A stretch of 64,000 bases of DNA from a bacterium (GCA_037200965.1 JBBCGK010000001.1:864001-928000), one strand, 5' to 3'. Counted from the stretch's first letter, positions 5,639-58,783 are shown. The notes: generated by a model from the letters alone, not told the origin. Numbers and translations are program-made.

Positions 5639-5874
5639 GGCCCCGGCCTCATTAATGGTGCTTGCGTTGAAATTAATTTTCGTTCGCAGTATAGTAAGTG
5701 CATATGGCAGTTAATGAAAAAAGACAAAGGGTCAATTTCACCGCTACAAAGATTATTTCAAAGCCTGCGGTAATTCGTTTCCAAACAAAAAATGGGCAAT
5801 TGGTGACCTTCAAGGGACATAAGGACATACCCGCGCCCGTTCGTGTGAGTTTTATGAGAAAGGGAAGATAGGAT

Positions 5875-6333
5875 ATGCGCCTACGGGCATTGAAACCCGA
5901 GATTGTTCATATCGAAGGAAATGCCTTGGTTCCGGCCAAGGCCGTTTCTTATGTGCTCGATGCGAACGGGAAGATCGTCGAAACGGTTAAACCGAGAACC
6001 CATGCATTTGAGAACGAACTAAAGGCGAAAATGAGAAGTGAACTCAAAGGAATCTCTCTATTCCCTACGAAGAATAAAGTATTTGTATCGATTATATGCG
6101 GACTTAATTCCAGCCATGAATATGAGAATCTTGACTTGGACAACAGAGTGAAAACCATTCTGGATGCATTGAAAGAGGTAGTATATGAGGATGATAAGCA
6201 GGTTAAGGTCTTACTGGCCGACAAGATATTTTTAAAGCACAAGCCGGAGAGCTACTTTCAGTTCAGTATCAAAGTGTTGGACGAGAAGACCGAGCGATTG
6301 TTATACAGGCATCTGTCGAAGATAGGCAGGTAA
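5875..6333 (+). CDS. rusA: RusA-family crossover junction endodeoxyribonuclease
   Basis: ENLDLDNRVKTILDALKEVVYEDDKQV matches the RusA DxDN..K..DAL...DD.Q core; gene and flanks are AT-rich relative to genome. Confidence 0.55.
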   Translation: MRLRALKPEIVHIEGNALVPAKAVSYVLDANGKIVETVKPRTHAFENELKAKMRSELKGISLFPTKNKVFVSIICGLNSSHEYENLDLDNRVKTILDALKEVVYEDDKQVKVLLADKIFLKHKPESYFQFSIKVLDEKTERLLYRHLSKIGR

Positions 6334-6691
6334 GACACAATATTCCGATTCGAGATACTTCTTGAGAAAAAGAACCTGAGTCGGAGACGACCATGCTCCA
6401 ATGTCGTCTTCCCAACTGCCACCTTCGCTTTCGCTGTTATGCAGGGTCAGCGAACGGATGCGTGCTAACTCGGGCCGTTTCTACCTGCGTGGGCAGTCCG
6501 CGCGTTCCGATGTCTTTCGCCAAGCATAGGAGTCTGCCATGGCGACTGGTTTCGCTTCCCACAGACGACCGCCCGGCGACATTTCCACCTGCTCTTAATT
6601 CCAAGGAGATTCGAAATGTCGCTATTTGTTTATAAGACGGGCGTCCATCGGATAGATGGACGCCCTGATCAGTTTCGATACTCGTCGTAGA

Positions 6692-8966: not shown

Positions 8967-9136
8967 TGTTTTTATATTACCTTGATATCACTGGTATATC
9001 ATTCTAACGTTCTTTACAAACACCTCATTCATACCTGTTTGAAATTTTCTAGTTTTAGTAGATTCTCTTTCCGTTGAACAGAACTAGTCCCTTATAAGCG
9101 TTTGCATTCCTTATAAGGAGATAGTACACTTTAAAT

Positions 9137-9370
9137 ATGAACAAGGAAAAGATTAAAGGAGAGTCATCTAGGGATAGATTTAAGCGTTTAGCAACGCTTC
9201 GTACCAACGGAGTACTCAGTCGGCTTAAAATACTTGGAAATTGTTCCAATCGTCATGTCTATGAATACGACGAGGAAGATATAGATAAAATCTTTTTTGA
9301 AATTGAACGCAAACTTAAGGAAGTAAAGGCTAAGTTTCATTTTCCAAAGCAGCGTGATTTTAAATTATAG
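9137..9370 (+). CDS. Small hypothetical protein (77 aa), first gene of the island operon
   Basis: Low-GC ORF 6 bp upstream of the 837-aa gene; preceded by two CTTATAAG palindromes. Confidence 0.3.
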   Translation: MNKEKIKGESSRDRFKRLATLRTNGVLSRLKILGNCSNRHVYEYDEEDIDKIFFEIERKLKEVKAKFHFPKQRDFKL

Positions 9371-9375
9371 AAACT

Positions 9376-11889
9376 ATGTCGCGGCCTCTAAAAAATAGAG
9401 AAGTCTTTTCGAAACTACTCAGCGCAGTTTCTTCAGAAGAGATAGCGTCTTTAATCGAAAACGAAGTCTTTTTTAAACCAGAAAATTGCAGATGGATTCC
9501 TTATGGAAGACGTGAGCTGAATGCCCCACAGATCGAGGGACAAATGAAAAGCTCAAGTAATGCGTTGGTAGAAAAAATCACCAATTCAACAGATGCTCTC
9601 CTAATGAGGCGATGCTATGAAGTCGAAGGGGTGGCACCTAATAGCGAAGACAAACGATTACCCAAGACTCTTTCTGAAGCAATTACAAAATATTTTGGAA
9701 GCGAAGAAGAAATAAATAAAAATCGAAGCGCATGGGCAAGACAGCATCTCATGGTTTTGGCTGAGGGTGATAAAAAGAGGCCAACAATTACTGTTATTGA
9801 TCGAGGCGAAGGACAAACTCCCAATAGAATTCAGGATACAATCGTTGGCTTGAGCGAGAGCATAAAGGAGAAAATAAATTTTGTTTTTGGTAAATACCAT
9901 CAAGGAGGGTCAGCCGCTATACGTTTTGCAGGTAGCAAAGCTAAGTGCTACCAGCTTGTCCTGTCCCGGCGCGCGGAGAGTATTGCCGATAAAGGTAAAG
10001 AAAATCCGTGGGGATTTACGTTGGTAAGGAAAAGTTTTAAAAACAGAGTTCCTTATTACGAATACTGCACAGACAAGGATGAAAACACCTTTTCTTTCCC
10101 GTACGATAAACCAATAAAAATTGATGGTCTGGAACTGGACTTTATCGATGGGTCACTTATCCGTATGTACGATTACTACTTGGATAATCCATCAAATATC
10201 ACTTTCGGGTTTCATTCACTGGCCTTCGATTTTGATCAAAAGTTACAGAAACCGCCACTCCCTATCTTTCTGCAAGATAAGAGAGGATGGAAAGGAGACA
10301 CTAAATATACAATTGCAGGCTTACTAAGGCGAATTGAGGATAATAAAAATATTATCAGCGATGATATTACCCTTCCTGCAGGTTTAGGAGAGATCGGAAC
10401 TCGCAATATCCGCTGCATTCGCTTGAAGCATATAAGCGATGCGGAAGGAGTAAAATCCTATAAAGAATTAAATCAGAAAATATTCTACCTGGAAAACGGT
10501 TTGGCTTTGGGATATGAGACCGAATCTTTTGTGCGAACAGATTGTCAGCTTCCCGCTCTGGCCCCCTATCTCCTCTGTTATATCGATATGTCTGATATTC
10601 CAGTTGAGTTGGTAAATATCTTTCACTCTGGAAGAGAAGAATTGGCTCGAACCGAGGATTATCACATCTTAAAAGATCGCCTAAAAAAGTTCTTTGAGAA
10701 TGAAGTCTTTGAGAAGTGGGATAGAGAATACCAAGAAAAAAGCTTGATCAATTCCAATGAGGATAATAAGGAACTCGATAAGCTCATTGAGAAGGCCATC
10801 GTCGATGATCCGGAACTCAAGGAGTTACTGGGTATTGGTGAAGAAATCAAGATCCCGAAGGGGAAAGAGGAGAATAAGGAGAAGTACATTGGCGAGGAAC
10901 ATCCAAAAATGTTTGAGCTTGTAGGGAGTCAACCAAAAGAGGTTGATAAATCTTCTTACGCCCTTATATCTTTTAAGACCGAGGCAGAAGATAAACTCTT
11001 TACTAGAAAAAAGAGCCGCTATTATATTGATTGGTCCAAAGATTCAACCATCCTTGATGTGGTGGTTCGTAGTATGAATAAAGGTATTGTGTCTTTGCGC
11101 GTGGATTGCAGGGAACATGCCAGCGTTGGCGATCAGGATAAGATTACTTTCACTCTGCTGGATTCTGAAAAAGTAAAAAAGTTTGAACAAATCGTTACAT
11201 TTAACGTAATTGAAACACCGCCTTATGAAGGTTCATATTTCCCAACGTACTTTAAGCCATTGAAGAAAACGCTGAAGATTCCATCGAAAACAAACAAAAA
11301 GTTTAGTTTTGCTACAGACGTTGCAAATGATTATTTCTCCAGAGAGGATGATCCTGGATTGTTTGAATTTGAAGATCGTGATGATCTGCGTTTAAAAAAG
11401 TCCCGTTTAAATGATGGCGTTCTCGAAATTACCTTTTATGCCGCTACTGAAAAGTTGGGGAAACTACCGGATGCTAAAGTAGTAATTAGCGATACTTCAA
11501 ATCATACGTTTGATATCTCTATACCCATCGAGATCGTCTCTCCCGAGGAGAGTTCCAGGCTTAACGAACCAAAGAGAAATCCTGTATATGAAAGAGACTG
11601 GCCCACTCACGGCTGGGATGAACATAGTATTGCCAGTGTTGATTCGTCCAGGACACAAGGCTTAATAGTAAATTTGAACGTAGATTCTAAGCCCTTGAAG
11701 GATTTAAAGAAAATGGTTGGCCTTGATAAAGTCGGAAGCGCAGAGAATAAATATATTGCCGATATTTACATTTATTCCCTCTATCTTTATTTTGAACTAA
11801 AAAATGATCCTGACAAGGATCGGGTTCTAGGTTCTGCAATGAAGGCTATTGGGAAGGCCCTTCCCGGAATGATAAGAAAAATCATTTAA
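9376..11889 (+). CDS. Large (837 aa) protein with N-terminal GHKL/Bergerat-fold ATPase domain (MORC/Hsp90/MutL-like) and ~600-aa uncharacterised C-terminal region
   Basis: N-box ALVEKITNSTDAL (ExxxNxxDA), G1 box VIDRGEGQT (DxGxG), G2 box GKYHQGGSAA (GxxGxG) in the first ~200 aa. Confidence 0.55.
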   Translation: MSRPLKNREVFSKLLSAVSSEEIASLIENEVFFKPENCRWIPYGRRELNAPQIEGQMKSSSNALVEKITNSTDALLMRRCYEVEGVAPNSEDKRLPKTLSEAITKYFGSEEEINKNRSAWARQHLMVLAEGDKKRPTITVIDRGEGQTPNRIQDTIVGLSESIKEKINFVFGKYHQGGSAAIRFAGSKAKCYQLVLSRRAESIADKGKENPWGFTLVRKSFKNRVPYYEYCTDKDENTFSFPYDKPIKIDGLELDFIDGSLIRMYDYYLDNPSNITFGFHSLAFDFDQKLQKPPLPIFLQDKRGWKGDTKYTIAGLLRRIEDNKNIISDDITLPAGLGEIGTRNIRCIRLKHISDAEGVKSYKELNQKIFYLENGLALGYETESFVRTDCQLPALAPYLLCYIDMSDIPVELVNIFHSGREELARTEDYHILKDRLKKFFENEVFEKWDREYQEKSLINSNEDNKELDKLIEKAIVDDPELKELLGIGEEIKIPKGKEENKEKYIGEEHPKMFELVGSQPKEVDKSSYALISFKTEAEDKLFTRKKSRYYIDWSKDSTILDVVVRSMNKGIVSLRVDCREHASVGDQDKITFTLLDSEKVKKFEQIVTFNVIETPPYEGSYFPTYFKPLKKTLKIPSKTNKKFSFATDVANDYFSREDDPGLFEFEDRDDLRLKKSRLNDGVLEITFYAATEKLGKLPDAKVVISDTSNHTFDISIPIEIVSPEESSRLNEPKRNPVYERDWPTHGWDEHSIASVDSSRTQGLIVNLNVDSKPLKDLKKMVGLDKVGSAENKYIADIYIYSLYLYFELKNDPDKDRVLGSAMKAIGKALPGMIRKII

Positions 11890-13202
11890 TTCTTCTCCAT
11901 TACGACTATATATTCAAATTCATACGCACGAGTTTTTGAAGGATTGTCCATTCCAGTAAACTTTCCGCTTTCAGTATCACGCCACGGAGTTATCATTTTA
12001 TTTGGTATTTCCCGCTTAATAAAGTCTACGTTCGTAAAACCAGCGGCCTGCATCTGTTCTGCCGCCACCTGTGCGTTCTGAATTTCTACACCCCGAAGAC
12101 TTGTGTTTCCAATAATTACGCAAGCCTTCCCGCCCTTCTTAAGAATTCGATGAGCCTCGGCGAAGACTTTTTTCATATCTAGGAAGTAATTAGCAACGTC
12201 GATAGCAAGCGGGCGTTCAACTAGCATGAGATCGTCGACAATTTTCGCCCCTATGATGCTATTAAAATTGCCGGCCTTTTTGGTCTTTGAACTCGTACCA
12301 ATAAAAGTTCTGCGAAAATCTATGAAACTATTACTGAAGTGATGCCATTTCTTGAAGTGTTTAGCATCGTCCCCGAACCACAGCAACGTAAGCTGATGAA
12401 GATCAGCATACTCATAGGAAGTCACATAAGGCGGAGAAGTCACTATCAAGTCGATAGATTCGGATTTAATTGGGAATGTTTTGGTCGAATCTCGACGATA
12501 CATTTTTGTCGGGATGCTGATGCGTTTTGCTTCAGCTAGGTTGTTGTAAAATAAATCATTCTTTCTAATCATTGAATCCAGATGTCGAAGAAAGGACTGT
12601 TTAGGGACCGGTATGATCTTGTCTTTGTCAACTGTCGGCTTGATACTTTTCATTAACCATCGAGAGCAGTTTTTCAGGTTATGTGAGAAAGCGCACAAGA
12701 AAAATCTACGAACGTGCGGACTCTTAATTTTCTTTATTGCAAAGTAAATTCTATCGAGCTCAATAACGGTTTCCGCATCGAACCAATAAGTAATTCGAGC
12801 ATGATGTGGGCGAGAGACGCTCGGAGCTGCATCATAGTATTCCAAGAATCTCTCTTTATGATTTGCAAGTGTACGCGGCTTAATCGCGGTGGTCTTTGTT
12901 TGAGTGATTAACTTCGCAACTGGATTTATATCAAAGCCGATACTCGGATGTCCTAGTAACTTTGCTTCCACCAAAGTCGTGCCACACCCACCGAATGGAT
13001 CACAAACGACTTGTGTAGTATGCGGCGCGTAATCTTCAATCAATTTACGAACAATTTGCGGAATAAACTTTGCCGGGTAACGATGATAGTCGTGGGAAAA
13101 GGCAGTAGTTTGTGAGCGACCAATATCTCGAAAAGACCACTCTTCACGCGGTTGCAGGCTTAAAAAAGTATTTCGGATGTTTTCGATATCAACAGTGGCC
13201 AT
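11886..13202 (-). CDS. SAM-dependent DNA amino-methyltransferase (N6-adenine/N4-cytosine type)
   Basis: Motif I VCDPFGGCGTT and motif IV VTSPPYVTSY about 190 aa downstream. Start taken at MATVDIEN (13202), where GC drops. Its stop overlaps the stop of the convergent GHKL gene (shared TTAA). Confidence 0.7.
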   Translation of the reverse strand: MATVDIENIRNTFLSLQPREEWSFRDIGRSQTTAFSHDYHRYPAKFIPQIVRKLIEDYAPHTTQVVCDPFGGCGTTLVEAKLLGHPSIGFDINPVAKLITQTKTTAIKPRTLANHKERFLEYYDAAPSVSRPHHARITYWFDAETVIELDRIYFAIKKIKSPHVRRFFLCAFSHNLKNCSRWLMKSIKPTVDKDKIIPVPKQSFLRHLDSMIRKNDLFYNNLAEAKRISIPTKMYRRDSTKTFPIKSESIDLIVTSPPYVTSYEYADLHQLTLLWFGDDAKHFKKWHHFSNSFIDFRRTFIGTSSKTKKAGNFNSIIGAKIVDDLMLVERPLAIDVANYFLDMKKVFAEAHRILKKGGKACVIIGNTSLRGVEIQNAQVAAEQMQAAGFTNVDFIKREIPNKMITPWRDTESGKFTGMDNPSKTRAYEFEYIVVMEKN

Positions 13203-13352
13203 ACTAAGAGGTAGTATAAGGGCAGGCCGGAGACGATTCAAGCACATGTCGTGTGTTCTTTGGCCCGGAGGAGCCACAGCAGATTCCGAAGTACATACAA
13301 GCGGTATCTTCGGTTTATTCGATAATTATCACCACGCGCGTATAATGGCTGC

Positions 13353-14354
13353 ATGGCTAAACGGAAAAAGGACTCAGAGATACATATGCCCGTCGATGTC
13401 GTCGTGTACCAGGCCAAAAGCGGAGCTATCGAGCTGCGCGGCGATTTCAGCAGGGAAACGGTCTGGGCGACGCAGGCACAGATTGCAGAGGTTTTCGGCG
13501 TTGAGCGATCCGTCGTGACCAAGCACATCCGGAATATTCTCAAGGACAAGGAACTTGAGGAACGTTCAGTACGTGCAAAACTTGCACATACTGCCGGGGA
13601 CGGCAAGACGTACCAAGTCGAGCATTATAACCTCGATGCCATCATTTCCGTTGGATATCGCGTGAACTCAAAGACAGCCACGGCGTTCCGCCAGTGGGCG
13701 ACGAAGACCCTGCGCTCGCATATCGTCGAGGGCTATACGATCAACCGCGCCCGCGTCGCGAAGAACTACGACGCGTTCATACGCGCGGTCGGTGAGATCA
13801 AGGCGCTTTTGCCCTCCCGTGCCGCGATCGGGGACGCAGGCGTCCTTGAGCTTGTCGCATTTTTCGCAGACACCTGGCTGTCGCTCGATGCGTACGATCG
13901 CGAGCGCTTCGTCCCGGTCCGCACGACCCGCAAGAAGGTCGCGCTTACCGCCGACATCCTCATGCGGAGCGTCTCGGTCCTTAAGTCGGAACTCATCGCG
14001 CGCGGCGAAGCGTCGGAACTCTTCGCCGCCGAGCGGGAGGTGAAGGCCCTTGAAGGGATCGTCGGCAACGTCTTGCAGTCGTTTGGCGGAAAAGAGCTCT
14101 ATCCGAGCGTCGAGGAGAAGGCGGCGCACCTTCTTTATTTCATCGTGAAAAACCATCCGTTCGCAGGCGGCAATAAACGCACGGGCGCATACGCGTTCGT
14201 CTGGTTCCTTGACCGTGCGAAGGTACTGGACCGGGAACGCATTACCCCGAGCGCACTCACCGCGCTCACGCTGCTCGTCGCGGAGAGCGATCCGAAGGAG
14301 AAAGAACGCATTACCGGCCTCGTGACGATGCTTCTCGGGCTCTCAAAGAAATGA
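13353..14354 (+). CDS. RhuM-family N-terminal domain fused to Fic/Doc domain protein
   Basis: YNLDAIISVGYRVNSKTATAFRQWATKTL (Virulence_RhuM-like) and HPFAGGNKRTGA (Doc-type Fic motif HxFx(D/N)GNKR). Confidence 0.6.
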   Translation: MAKRKKDSEIHMPVDVVVYQAKSGAIELRGDFSRETVWATQAQIAEVFGVERSVVTKHIRNILKDKELEERSVRAKLAHTAGDGKTYQVEHYNLDAIISVGYRVNSKTATAFRQWATKTLRSHIVEGYTINRARVAKNYDAFIRAVGEIKALLPSRAAIGDAGVLELVAFFADTWLSLDAYDRERFVPVRTTRKKVALTADILMRSVSVLKSELIARGEASELFAAEREVKALEGIVGNVLQSFGGKELYPSVEEKAAHLLYFIVKNHPFAGGNKRTGAYAFVWFLDRAKVLDRERITPSALTALTLLVAESDPKEKERITGLVTMLLGLSKK

Positions 14355-14361
14355 CGGGTAT

Positions 14362-16041
14362 ATGACGCAAGGCGAAGCGCTCAATATCCTCAAGACAGGC
14401 GCGAACGTCTTTCTCACGGGCGAGCCTGGGAGCGGCAAGACCCACACCGTAAACGAATATGTCGCATGGCTCCGTTCCCATGACATCGAGCCCGCGATCA
14501 CGGCTTCGACCGGGATAGCCGCCACCCATATCCAGGGAATGACGATCCACTCATGGAGCGGCATCGGGATAGCGGAATCGCTGTCGGAAGCCGATCTCGA
14601 CCGGATCGCAAGCAAGGAGCACGTCGCGCGGAGAATCGCGAAGACGCATGTTCTCATTATCGACGAGGTGTCGATGCTATCGGGCGAAGTGCTCCGGATG
14701 GCGGACCGGGTATGCCGGGAAGTGCGCAGAAGGCCGGAGCCGTTCGGCGGGCTGCAGGTGGTTCTCGTGGGCGATTTCTTCCAGCTGCCGCCCGTGACCC
14801 GGGGGGGAAAGGAAGTAAGCTTCGCCTTCGATTCGCCTTCGTGGCGGGAGCTCAACCCGATCATCTGCTATCTCACCGAACAGCACCGGCAGGACGACGC
14901 GAAGTTCACCGCCGTGCTCTCGGCGATACGCGCGGGAGACTGGGACCAGTCGCATGTTTCGGCGATCACATCCCGCGAGACCGACGGCGACGAGCTCGGG
15001 GACGAGACGCCCCGGCTCTTCACGCACAATGCGGACGTGGACCGTATCAACGGCGACAAGCTCGCGGGCATTAAAGGAAACGCGAAGACGTACGAAATGG
15101 AGTCGAGCGGATCCCCGGTCCTCATCGAGGCGCTTAAGCGCGGCTGCCTTTCGCCCGAAACTCTTACGCTTAAAGAAGGCGCGATCGTGATGTGCACTAA
15201 GAATAACCAGGCCGCGGGATACGTGAACGGGACCCTGGGAACCGTGATCGGCTTCTCGACAGGCTGGGGCGCCTCCGCGAGCCCCATAATCGAGACGAAA
15301 GACGGCCGCGAACTCACCATAGAGCCCGCGGACTGGGCGGTCGAAGAAAACGGCAAGGTACGGGCGAAAGTAACTCAGGTGCCGCTCCGCCTTGCCTGGG
15401 CGATCACGGTCCACAAAAGCCAGGGGATGAGTATGGACAGTGCGGCTATGGACCTCTCGAGGGCATTTGAATACGGGCAAGGATATGTGGCGCTCTCGCG
15501 TGTACGGTCGCTCGACGGACTCCACCTCCTTGGCTGGAGCGAGGAAGCGCTCAGGGTACATCCGGCCGTGGCCGCGAGGGATGCGGAATTCCGCGAGGCT
15601 TCGCTTGAAGCGGGCGCGGCATTTTCAGCGCTCGAAGAAGACGGGAGCCGTGAGACTATGGAGCGCAATTTCATCAAGGCCTCGGGCGGCACGCTTGAGG
15701 CGCGGGAAGCGGGGAAGCCCAAACCACCAAAGAGAAGCACGTACGAAGAAACCCTCGCGCTTATCGAAGCGGGGAAGACGATCGAGGGAGTGGCAGCCGC
15801 CCGCGCGCTCACGTTCGGCACCATCACGGACCACGTGGAGAAGCTCGTGAAGGGCGGGAAGCTCGATACGGAAGACGTGCGGCGCATTATCCCGGTCAGA
15901 CTCCACGATGCGCTCCCGGATATTTTCGAGGTATTCCGGGCCGTGGGCGCAGAGAAGCTCGCGCCCGCATTCGCGCGGCTTGGGAGCGAGCACGGCTACG
16001 ACGACCTGCGTCTCGCGCGGCTTCTCTATGAACGAAAGTAG
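14362..16041 (+). CDS. Pif1/RecD-like ATP-dependent DNA helicase (AAA_30) with C-terminal HTH-like region
   Basis: Walker A GEPGSGKT, Walker B LIIDEVSM, QLPPV, ITVHKSQGMS (Pif1 signature-like), YVALSRV. Confidence 0.7.
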   Translation: MTQGEALNILKTGANVFLTGEPGSGKTHTVNEYVAWLRSHDIEPAITASTGIAATHIQGMTIHSWSGIGIAESLSEADLDRIASKEHVARRIAKTHVLIIDEVSMLSGEVLRMADRVCREVRRRPEPFGGLQVVLVGDFFQLPPVTRGGKEVSFAFDSPSWRELNPIICYLTEQHRQDDAKFTAVLSAIRAGDWDQSHVSAITSRETDGDELGDETPRLFTHNADVDRINGDKLAGIKGNAKTYEMESSGSPVLIEALKRGCLSPETLTLKEGAIVMCTKNNQAAGYVNGTLGTVIGFSTGWGASASPIIETKDGRELTIEPADWAVEENGKVRAKVTQVPLRLAWAITVHKSQGMSMDSAAMDLSRAFEYGQGYVALSRVRSLDGLHLLGWSEEALRVHPAVAARDAEFREASLEAGAAFSALEEDGSRETMERNFIKASGGTLEAREAGKPKPPKRSTYEETLALIEAGKTIEGVAAARALTFGTITDHVEKLVKGGKLDTEDVRRIIPVRLHDALPDIFEVFRAVGAEKLAPAFARLGSEHGYDDLRLARLLYERK

Positions 16042-58602: not shown

Positions 58603-58783
58603 GTTATAAACACTGTATCAATACAGGGCGATTTATGCTATTGTCTGAACACACGGCATGCGTCCTTCAGGAGCATCGCGGTGGCCCTTCCCGGGCGTTT
58701 CCTCCCTGAACTTGCGGCACCCCTGGTGCCGCCCTTTTTTGCAAATTGACTCGCAAGCCTTCTTTTGGTACCCTGCTTCATAC

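Follow-up and report, generated by a model that had tools for sequence, protein, structure and literature searches.

What does a foreign-looking island of three genes, two of which run into each other within the same four bases, do for the bacterium that carries it? The island lies in a 64,000-nucleotide stretch of a bacterial genome (GCA_037200965.1 JBBCGK010000001.1:864001-928000; hereafter the window, numbered from its first base), between a gene for a VTT/DedA protein on the left and one for a RhuM+Fic/DOC protein on the right. It encodes a 77-residue protein, an 837-residue protein with the motifs of a GHKL ATPase and, convergently, a DNA methyltransferase. On balance, we lean towards reading this cassette as a mobile, three-component defence system that tells self from non-self by DNA modification, in the manner of restriction-modification (R-M), and in which a GHKL clamp ATPase would form the restriction arm. 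The low-GC (guanine plus cytosine) island with its sharp borders, three genes, overlapping stop codons, motifs and flanks had been described in an initial annotation of the window, and all of these elements were found in place. The cassette and its genes are as follows.

9132-13202, no strand: three-gene low-GC cassette, the horizontally transferred unit, delimited by GC content and blastn homology
9137-9370, plus strand: 77-residue basic small protein, immediately upstream of the GHKL gene
9376-11889, plus strand: large GHKL protein, 837 residues
11886-11889, no strand: overlapping convergent stop codons of the large gene and the methyltransferase gene in a shared TTAA, read from the sequence
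11886-13202, minus strand: alpha-class N4/N6 DNA amino-methyltransferase, 438 residues from the likely start ATG 13202, matched by PF01555, PADLOC and PHROG models

Across 9001-13000, the GC content per kb was 0.39, 0.40, 0.39, and 0.43; elsewhere in the window it was about 0.52-0.66, mostly 0.57-0.63, and about 0.59 in the flanks, and the low-GC borders fall at about 8970 and about 13200-13350. Nucleotide homology to the cassettes of other metagenome-assembled genomes (MAGs), as found by blastn, was confined to 9132-13183, and the transferred unit therefore consists of exactly three genes; the best match (L018), in a Candidatus Saccharibacteria MAG, was 79% identical over 4010 nt. The GC contrast and the restricted homology support the foreign, horizontally transferred origin that had been proposed for the island. 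Flanking direct repeats or attachment (att) sites were sought, and only short repeats at chance level were found; a promoter and terminator scan of the sequence returned no more sites than shuffled sequence did. Serine recombinases lie close by in several cassette loci, and these, together with the GC contrast, the close relative in Saccharibacteria, and the occurrence in many phyla and on plasmids, support the mobility of the cassette.

The methyltransferase ORF (open reading frame) extends on the minus strand from a GTG at 13277 to 11886 (463 residues), but the most likely start is the ATG at 13202, because blastn homology ends at 13183 and the homologues begin at the internal methionine. 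The protein matched PF01555 (E = 5.9e-19) and, over its full length, both the PADLOC type II model PDLC03322 (MTase_II; residues 47-436, E = 1.4e-49) and PHROG 18146, a DNA methyltransferase family (E = 6.9e-51). Its PDB sequence matches are DNA cytosine-N4 methyltransferases, and its plasmid homologues are annotated as DNA methyltransferases. These matches bear out the assignment first made from the motifs, and no sign of an RNA methyltransferase was seen among them. Motif I (DPFGGxGTT, here DPFGGCGTT, at residues ~93-101 of the 463-residue ORF) and motif IV (TSPPY, residues ~280-283) are invariant across five divergent homologues. That motif I precedes motif IV had been taken for an unusual architecture; it is the ordinary order of alpha-class amino-methyltransferases, in which motif I is followed by the recognition region and then by motif IV. 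Because the matches to existing type II methyltransferase models are full-length, we assign the enzyme as an ordinary alpha-class N4/N6 DNA amino-methyltransferase, and the SPPY motif and the PDB matches to cytosine-N4 enzymes suggest that its mark is probably N4-methylcytosine.

The 837-residue protein had no match in Pfam, NCBIfam, PADLOC, PHROGs, or the PDB sequences, in searches with the single sequence and with a 34-sequence profile. The motifs LVEKITNSTDAL, VIDRGEGQT, and GKYHQGGSAA, from which it had been called a GHKL ATPase, were all located in it, and an alignment of 85 full-length homologues showed 100% conservation of E66, N70, D73, and A74 in the N box (ExxxNxxD, with the catalytic Glu and the Mg-binding Asn), of D142, G144, and G146 in motif II (DxGxG), and of G172 and G177 in motif III (the G2 box). 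Outside the ATPase module, only G570, P732, W742, and N768 were invariant, and P510, F513, T535, and R544 were conserved at 97-98%. The predicted structure has the Bergerat alpha/beta sandwich fold, and its structure matches (score; residues aligned) were the MORC3 ATPase (17.9; 283), SMCHD1 (16.3; 309), TRAP1 (15.4; 315), the MutL N-terminal domain (15.1 and 14.9; 263 and 269), MORC2 (14.2; 303), and TopoVI-B (13.6; 311). Foldseek independently returned Hsp90 N+M, GyrB/ParE 43K, and MORC2/3 at E values of 1e-9 to 1e-7 over 440-480 columns. The GHKL assignment is thus upheld by invariant motif residues and by matches to MORC3, SMCHD1, MutL, Hsp90, and GyrB modules. Two-domain GHKL+S5 structures aligned over 263-309 residues, as against 151-173 for GHKL-only domains, and because of this greater length we read residues ~201-410 as an S5-type transducer. 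The C-terminal ~600 residues, previously described as lacking any recognisable domain, resolve in the model into four parts, listed here after the ATPase domain.

9376-9975, plus strand: N-terminal strap and predicted GHKL (Bergerat-fold) ATP-binding domain, residues 1-200
9976-10605, plus strand: predicted S5-fold transducer domain, residues ~201-410
10606-10890, plus strand: helical linker, residues ~411-505, partly of low confidence (AlphaFold)
10891-11538, plus strand: predicted tandem Ig-like beta-sandwich domains, residues ~506-721
11539-11889, plus strand: predicted C-terminal alpha/beta and helical-hairpin domain, residues 722-837, conserved and without a known fold relative

In the AlphaFold model the linker has helices at 421-484, and pLDDT (the predicted local distance difference test) falls below 50 at 486-502. 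Residues ~621-725 are a clade-specific insertion, and the conserved core of the family comprises positions ~1-612 and the C-terminal domain, which is conserved family-wide. The protein is predicted to dimerise and act as a clamp-type GHKL+S5 ATPase, in one class with MORC, MutL, Hsp90, and GyrB/TopoVI-B, and to have an intact active site. A word-indexed search found 108 clusters of its family; clustered at 50% identity, the matches of an exhaustive profile search amount to 2,741 representatives, and E is at or below 1e-30 for 1,022 of these. Distant members lie on annotated plasmids of Ensifer, Hymenobacter, Pontibacillus, Devosia, and haloarchaea, all labelled "hypothetical protein".

Does the large protein cut DNA? 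A nuclease had been suspected in its C-terminal 600 residues. Fold searches with the full-length protein and with the C-terminal domain returned no PD-(D/E)xK, HNH, PLD, or Mrr-like fold and no TIR or restriction-endonuclease (RE) fold, and the 85 homologues showed no conserved acidic or His cluster beyond the ATP site, no invariant His, and no E-D-ExK set outside it, which together speak against the suspicion. The alternative that survives best, possible though unlikely in our estimate, is a type II-like R-M system in which the GHKL protein would itself be an ATP-dependent endonuclease, cutting unmethylated sites with a cryptic, novel active site; the candidates would be N768-x-D/E770-S771 in the C-terminal orphan domain, or D404/R420 at the end of the transducer. 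Several points favour it: the gene order (small ORF, restriction gene, convergent modification gene) and the tight linkage mirror classical controller-restriction/modification (C-R/M) cassettes, restriction nucleases are notoriously hard to detect by sequence, and the C-terminal domain is retained throughout the family and has no known fold. Moreover, DNA cleavage is coupled to a GHKL module in MutL and in type II topoisomerases (PMC2292703). We give a nuclease-free block of replication or expression, or a recruited nuclease, somewhat better odds than a cryptic active site.

One line of support for a modification-based system is linkage. From named genomes we took 80 loci, in which ORFs were called, the ATPase was found with a hidden Markov model (HMM), and the neighbours were clustered and annotated through cluster representatives; a further 80 metagenome loci were taken via close relatives of the methyltransferase and scanned with HMMs. 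The methyltransferase was found in each of the 23 genome loci that belong to the window's clade, and the GHKL gene was present in 71 of the 80 methyltransferase-anchored metagenome loci. Eight of the nine loci that lack it end within 96 nt of the methyltransferase 3' end and are uninformative, so that the figure becomes 71 of 72. The ninth (L176 783-2108) is the sole informative locus in which a related methyltransferase (55% identity) has no GHKL gene within 2.5 kb downstream, and it is possibly an orphan or a decayed cassette. The two genes are convergent in 67 of the 71 cassettes and co-directional in four, and 48 of the 67 share the junction spacing of the window's overlapping stop codons. 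A small ORF precedes the ATPase gene in 52 of the 54 metagenome loci in which the 5' end of that gene lies on the contig; among 87 genome loci, 33 have one. Dozens of independent contigs show the arrangement, a recurrence far beyond what chance would produce. The co-occurrence of the two proteins, which the initial annotation had named as something to check, is supported as near-obligate in both directions. Orphan methyltransferases are common among type II systems; this subfamily differs, being almost never orphan.

More distant relatives of the GHKL protein keep other company. Four groups of loci, defined by similarity to the window protein, were distinguished.

Group a: small ORF followed by the GHKL gene, with a convergent methyltransferase (23/23 loci of the window's clade, one with the methyltransferase upstream)
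Group b: DndB gene followed by the GHKL gene, with a convergent methyltransferase
Group c: GHKL gene beside genes for DUF4007/SspB, BrxC-like/SspC, 3'-phosphoadenosine-5'-phosphosulfate (PAPS) reductase/SspD, DUF262, and cysteine desulfurase
Group d: small ORF followed by the GHKL gene and a gene for a YhcG-type PD-(D/E)xK nuclease, without a methyltransferase (mainly Bacteroidota)

The equivalence of DUF4007, BrxC-like protein, and PAPS reductase to SspB, SspC, and SspD has been reported (PMC12839542), and about 84% of sspBCD modules have no known restriction partner (PMC8092258). At 25-30% identity to the window protein, the group c relatives occupy the position of the known restriction partners SspE or SspFGH, and their loci sometimes add a protein kinase, SIR2, DndB, or a second HATPase protein. 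In five group d loci (L044, L045, L048, L050, and L052) the genes are co-directional, and the YhcG protein consists of DUF1016_N and a PD-(D/E)xK domain (PF06250, E = 4.8e-60). Overall, the defence-type neighbours of the relatives, other than methyltransferases and Ssp proteins, are DndB, DUF262, SIR2, protein kinase, and, in the Bacteroidota clade, the YhcG nuclease. No description of the family emerged from literature searches that combined GHKL or HATPase with phosphorothioation, nor is it covered in a 2026 preprint on methyltransferases of the Candidate Phyla Radiation (CPR). The near-obligate linkage, the pairing of relatives with SspBCD, and this absence from the libraries and literature searched agree with the earlier suggestion of a novel, modification-linked defence module.

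Several loci depart from the common layouts. A minority order of methyltransferase, small ORF, and GHKL gene, all co-directional, was seen in L012/L013, L134, L154, L156, and L166, and in L012/L013 this arrangement is preceded by a serine recombinase and followed by a metallo-beta-lactamase-fold protein. Upstream of the DndB-GHKL-methyltransferase genes of L006 (1-4462) lie a >943-residue N6_N4 methyltransferase fusion and a UvrD-type helicase, and downstream a serine recombinase and a DDE transposase, a context resembling a defence island. Loci of the clade linked to phosphorothioation often have a conserved gene pair before or after the GHKL gene, encoding an unannotated ~161-residue protein without a Pfam match ("c12") and a DndB-family protein, for example in L088 (9477-11227), L091, L095, L049, and L177; one such pair is on an IMG/VR viral contig. 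L014 (4372-6732) and L073 encode, beside the GHKL gene and SspC/SspD-like genes, a ~786-residue protein with an N-terminal HATPase_c_3 and a C-terminal HATPase_c domain, which may be the histidine-kinase-like element that has been reported with paraMORC and R-M systems (PMC8011034).

We then asked how the three components vary together, using 64 unique complete cassettes (2,016 pairs). Mean pairwise identities were 0.46 (GHKL protein), 0.76 (methyltransferase), and 0.67 (small protein). The GHKL identities form two peaks, one at 30-45% and the other at 60-85%, separated by a gap at 50-55%, and define five lineages; all five, although only 30-45% identical to one another, pair with a single methyltransferase lineage (at least 70% identity) in 59 of the 64 cassettes. 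In this set, which was ascertained on methyltransferase similarity, the small protein co-varied with the methyltransferase (Spearman 0.56, Mantel p 0.001), whereas the correlation was 0.10 (p 0.039) between the GHKL protein and the methyltransferase and 0.03 (p 0.26) between the small protein and the GHKL protein. In 549 pairs the GHKL identity was below 45% despite a methyltransferase identity above 80%. When locus L024 was aligned with the window, nucleotide similarity extended through the small gene as far as 9378 and restarted at 11887, each point no more than two bases from an end of the GHKL gene (9376 and 11889). The lineage pairing, the co-variation, and these breakpoints indicate that the central gene has been replaced or has drastically diverged while the two flanking genes were inherited together.

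These observations bear on a second alternative, in which the GHKL ATPase and the small protein would be accessory or regulatory factors of modification (an ATP-driven loader, scanner, or regulator through which the methyltransferase or SspBCD would find or limit its targets) in an epigenetic rather than a defensive module. The family is linked in most loci to two modification chemistries, methylation and phosphorothioation, and not to nucleases, fold searches detected no effector, and DndB, a frequent partner, has been described as a regulator of phosphorothioation (PMC10853773). However, the clade with the small protein, GHKL protein, and YhcG nuclease carries no modification gene, the convergent layout with overlapping stop codons is typical of antagonistic R/M pairs, and alpha-class methyltransferases of this family normally act alone, as their full-length matches to stand-alone type II models show. 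Fast replacement of ATPase lineages beside a constant methyltransferase would also be less expected of a housekeeping cofactor than of an arms-race component, and we consider the accessory role improbable.

If the ATPase is exchanged so freely, which component is matched to the methyltransferase? The small protein (9137-9370) is basic, with a pI of 9.8, and highly conserved. It matched no Pfam family above threshold, and a PDB profile search returned chance-level matches only; DUF4145 appeared below threshold in 6 of 20 members (best E = 2.5e-4; 13-15 bits where examined, against a cut-off of 23.1). Its family comprises 175 clusters, the close ones 67-84% identical, and among the 120 clusters listed every member is a standalone protein of 71-95 residues. 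The signature is RF.R.A..R....L..L..LGNCSN...Y.Y..(D/E)..K.F, with F-x-L at the C-terminus. A helix-turn-helix (HTH) controller was rejected, as there were no HTH matches, and so was a fragment or homologue of DndB, which replaces the small protein in the sister clade (hhalign probability 0.2%). Because of its co-variation with the methyltransferase, we infer that the small protein, and not the ATPase, is the matched partner, possibly as an adaptor, specificity factor, or regulator. One further feature lies upstream of it.

9091-9119, no strand: two palindromes, CTTATAAG (9091-9098) and TCCTTATAAGGA (9108-9119), upstream of the small ORF, a candidate operator

Palindromes of the CTTATAAG type sit 20-45 nt upstream of the small ORF, 19 bp apart. 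Of 32 other loci, only two (L036 and L035) have a similar palindrome at the corresponding upstream place, so a conserved operator was rejected as a general feature, and for CTTATAAG and TCCTTATAAGGA in the window this recurrence leaves a role as operator a weakly indicated possibility.

How might the three components act together? The methyltransferase linkage and the pairing of relatives with a different DNA-modification chemistry point to modification-based defence. The methyltransferase would mark host DNA, probably as N4-methylcytosine, and the GHKL ATPase would be the restriction-side component, acting with the co-transcribed 77-residue protein on unmarked DNA. ATP binding would close the GHKL dimer around that DNA, or remodel a complex on it, and targeting would be set by the methyltransferase-matched small protein or by the methylation state itself. 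Inhibition could be nuclease-free, blocking replication or expression in the way of BREX or of eukaryotic MORC compaction, or could proceed via a separate, recruited nuclease. We favour a sequence-agnostic, ATP-driven clamp or remodeller as the role of the ATPase because no nuclease is detectable, a sister clade has a separate nuclease gene, and one methyltransferase lineage tolerates five ATPase lineages; the repeated swapping of the ATPase gene between conserved flanking genes is what would be expected if the ATPase were engaged in an arms race against phage inhibitors. Of the "ATP-dependent restriction" named in the initial annotation, the idea of a defence module is thus supported, no cleavage activity was identified, and restriction is a matter of reasoning. 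A bolder version, which we put forward as doubtful, is nuclease-free restriction proper: a MORC/MutL-like clamp led to unmethylated DNA by a methyltransferase-matched mini-protein would topologically entrap or compact the invader and block its replication or expression without cutting it. It would be a bacterial counterpart, and possibly an antecedent, of eukaryotic MORC silencing, and the same family would be the missing restriction partner of many orphan SspBCD modules.

A number of points weigh against the defence interpretation. Everything in it beyond fold and linkage is inferred, and GHKL membership itself is based on the predicted structure and on short motifs. Profile searches stayed below significance: Pfam HATPase_c_3 matched 1 of 34 family members (E = 0.0033), and an hhalign comparison of the family profile with the E. 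coli MutL N-terminal domain aligned the N box only, pairing its residues with MutL E29/N33/D36 at a non-significant E value of 0.33. None of the three cassette proteins showed a nuclease or another effector domain in the sequence and fold searches. Some family members stand alone, with no modification gene nearby. The ascertainment of the co-variation set compresses the variance of the methyltransferase. Finally, a search of 50,697 phage genomes gave no match to the family, and IMG/VR gave just two distant ones; a phage origin was rejected on this near-absence, which is neutral for defence and lends it no support.

The remaining alternative, which we judge very improbable, is an abortive-infection or addiction module in which the GHKL ATPase would be a sensor or toxin that arrests the cell, and not the invader, upon a lapse of methylation or a phage cue, with the methyltransferase as an antidote stabilising the selfish cassette: the cassette behaves as a selfish mobile unit, its methyltransferase and ATPase are almost never apart, and relatives adjoin SIR2, protein kinase, and Fic-type genes typical of abortive-infection systems, but no toxin-like domain was identified in the cassette proteins, classical R-M systems show the same addiction behaviour, and on sequence data alone such a module is indistinguishable from the modification-based defence that we prefer.

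Is the proposed R-M-like system one already known by another name? GHKL/MutL-like ATPases in R-M operons were predicted by Iyer, Abhiman & Aravind in 2008 (PMC2292703), and the window protein, like MORC and paraMORC proteins, appears to fuse the GHKL domain to an S5-fold transducer. Unlike theirs, the window clade has no linked superfamily-II helicase, Vsr, HNH, or RE-fold nuclease; no conserved helicase or nuclease neighbour was found in the clade's cassettes, with a methylase in nearly all loci. The family-specific signatures are the MORC motif, ExxxH in paraMORC2, HxH in paraMORC5, E-D-ExK in paraMORC3, and TIR in paraMORC4. The predicted C-terminus of the window protein, with Ig-like sandwiches and an orphan domain, is unlike the paraMORC1-5 extensions (RE fold, TIR, HxH domain), as set apart by their descriptions; moreover, the family has an obligatory 77-residue partner, and HATPase_c_3 does not detect the window protein. 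The closest validated case is paraMORC3/Shedu type I-D (VcSduA), an anti-phage GHKL-nuclease fusion and likewise a GHKL ATPase predicted to form a dimeric clamp (PMC12137116). However, VcSduA has a C-terminal DUF4263 PD-(D/E)xK nuclease and needs no methyltransferase, whereas the window protein is nuclease-free by search and methyltransferase-linked; identity with paraMORC3/Shedu was rejected since the DUF4263 nuclease is missing.

Type II C-R/M cassettes share with the window cassette the order of small ORF, large gene, and convergent methyltransferase, as well as tight linkage, horizontal transfer, and foreign GC content. They differ in that the large protein of the window has no recognisable endonuclease and the small protein no HTH match, and in that one methyltransferase lineage is common to five divergent large-protein lineages. 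Distant GHKL relatives lie beside SspB/C/D and cysteine desulfurase at the expected place of a restriction partner in SspABCD-SspE/SspFGH systems (PMC8092258, PMC12839542), but the window cassette uses methylation and not phosphorothioation, its GHKL protein is unrelated to SspE (DUF262+HNH) or SspFGH, and a PAPS-reductase-type SspD/DndC gene and its partner genes, present only beside distant homologues, were not found in it. BREX has been described as a system in which no nuclease is identifiable (10.1101/2021.12.19.473356); self/non-self discrimination by methylation without an identifiable nuclease would be common to both, as a functional analogy only, since PglZ, BrxC, BrxL, and PglX are all absent from the cassette, which has three genes to the six of BREX. 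Identity with MADS, an eight-gene system of different components, was also rejected. The general theme of GHKL proteins in R-M is already known; distinct to this family are the lack of a nuclease, helicase, or TIR module, the Ig-like region and orphan C-terminal domain, the mini-protein partner, the interchangeable pairing with methylation or Ssp phosphorothioation modules, and its escape from current domain and defence libraries.

Outside the transferred unit, the RhuM+Fic/DOC gene (13353-14354) is followed by one for a PIF1-like helicase with a C-terminal HTH_40 domain (14362-16041), both at native GC; gene types of this kind are frequent around defence or mobile loci. A second, smaller low-GC islet (5650-6400, GC 0.41-0.45), 3 kb to the left of the cassette, encodes a 57-residue ORF without a Pfam match (5698-5871) and a 152-residue RusA-family Holliday-junction endonuclease (5875-6333; PF05866, E = 1.6e-10), and is probably another foreign, phage-derived insertion. 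At 58677-58747 on the plus strand, the window matches the Rfam family suhB/mmgR (RF00519; 51 bits, gathering score 41), an alphaproteobacterial small RNA family. The match is unexpected in what, judging by the island's Patescibacteria-like relatives, may be a CPR-type organism.

Taken together, if the interpretation holds, a large and taxonomically broad protein family that is absent from Pfam, NCBIfam, PADLOC, and PHROGs would supply the half other than the methyltransferase in a compact, modification-based immunity cassette that is common among Patescibacteria, and hundreds of pairs now annotated as a hypothetical protein and an orphan methyltransferase would be reclassified. The exchange of five ATPase lineages between conserved genes for a mini-protein and a methyltransferase is an unusually clean case of modularity within a defence cassette. 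The same GHKL family may be the missing partner of some orphan SspBCD phosphorothioation modules, and the cassette, if true to this reading, would show a GHKL clamp ATPase restricting DNA without an obvious nuclease in a small, 4-kb system of three genes.

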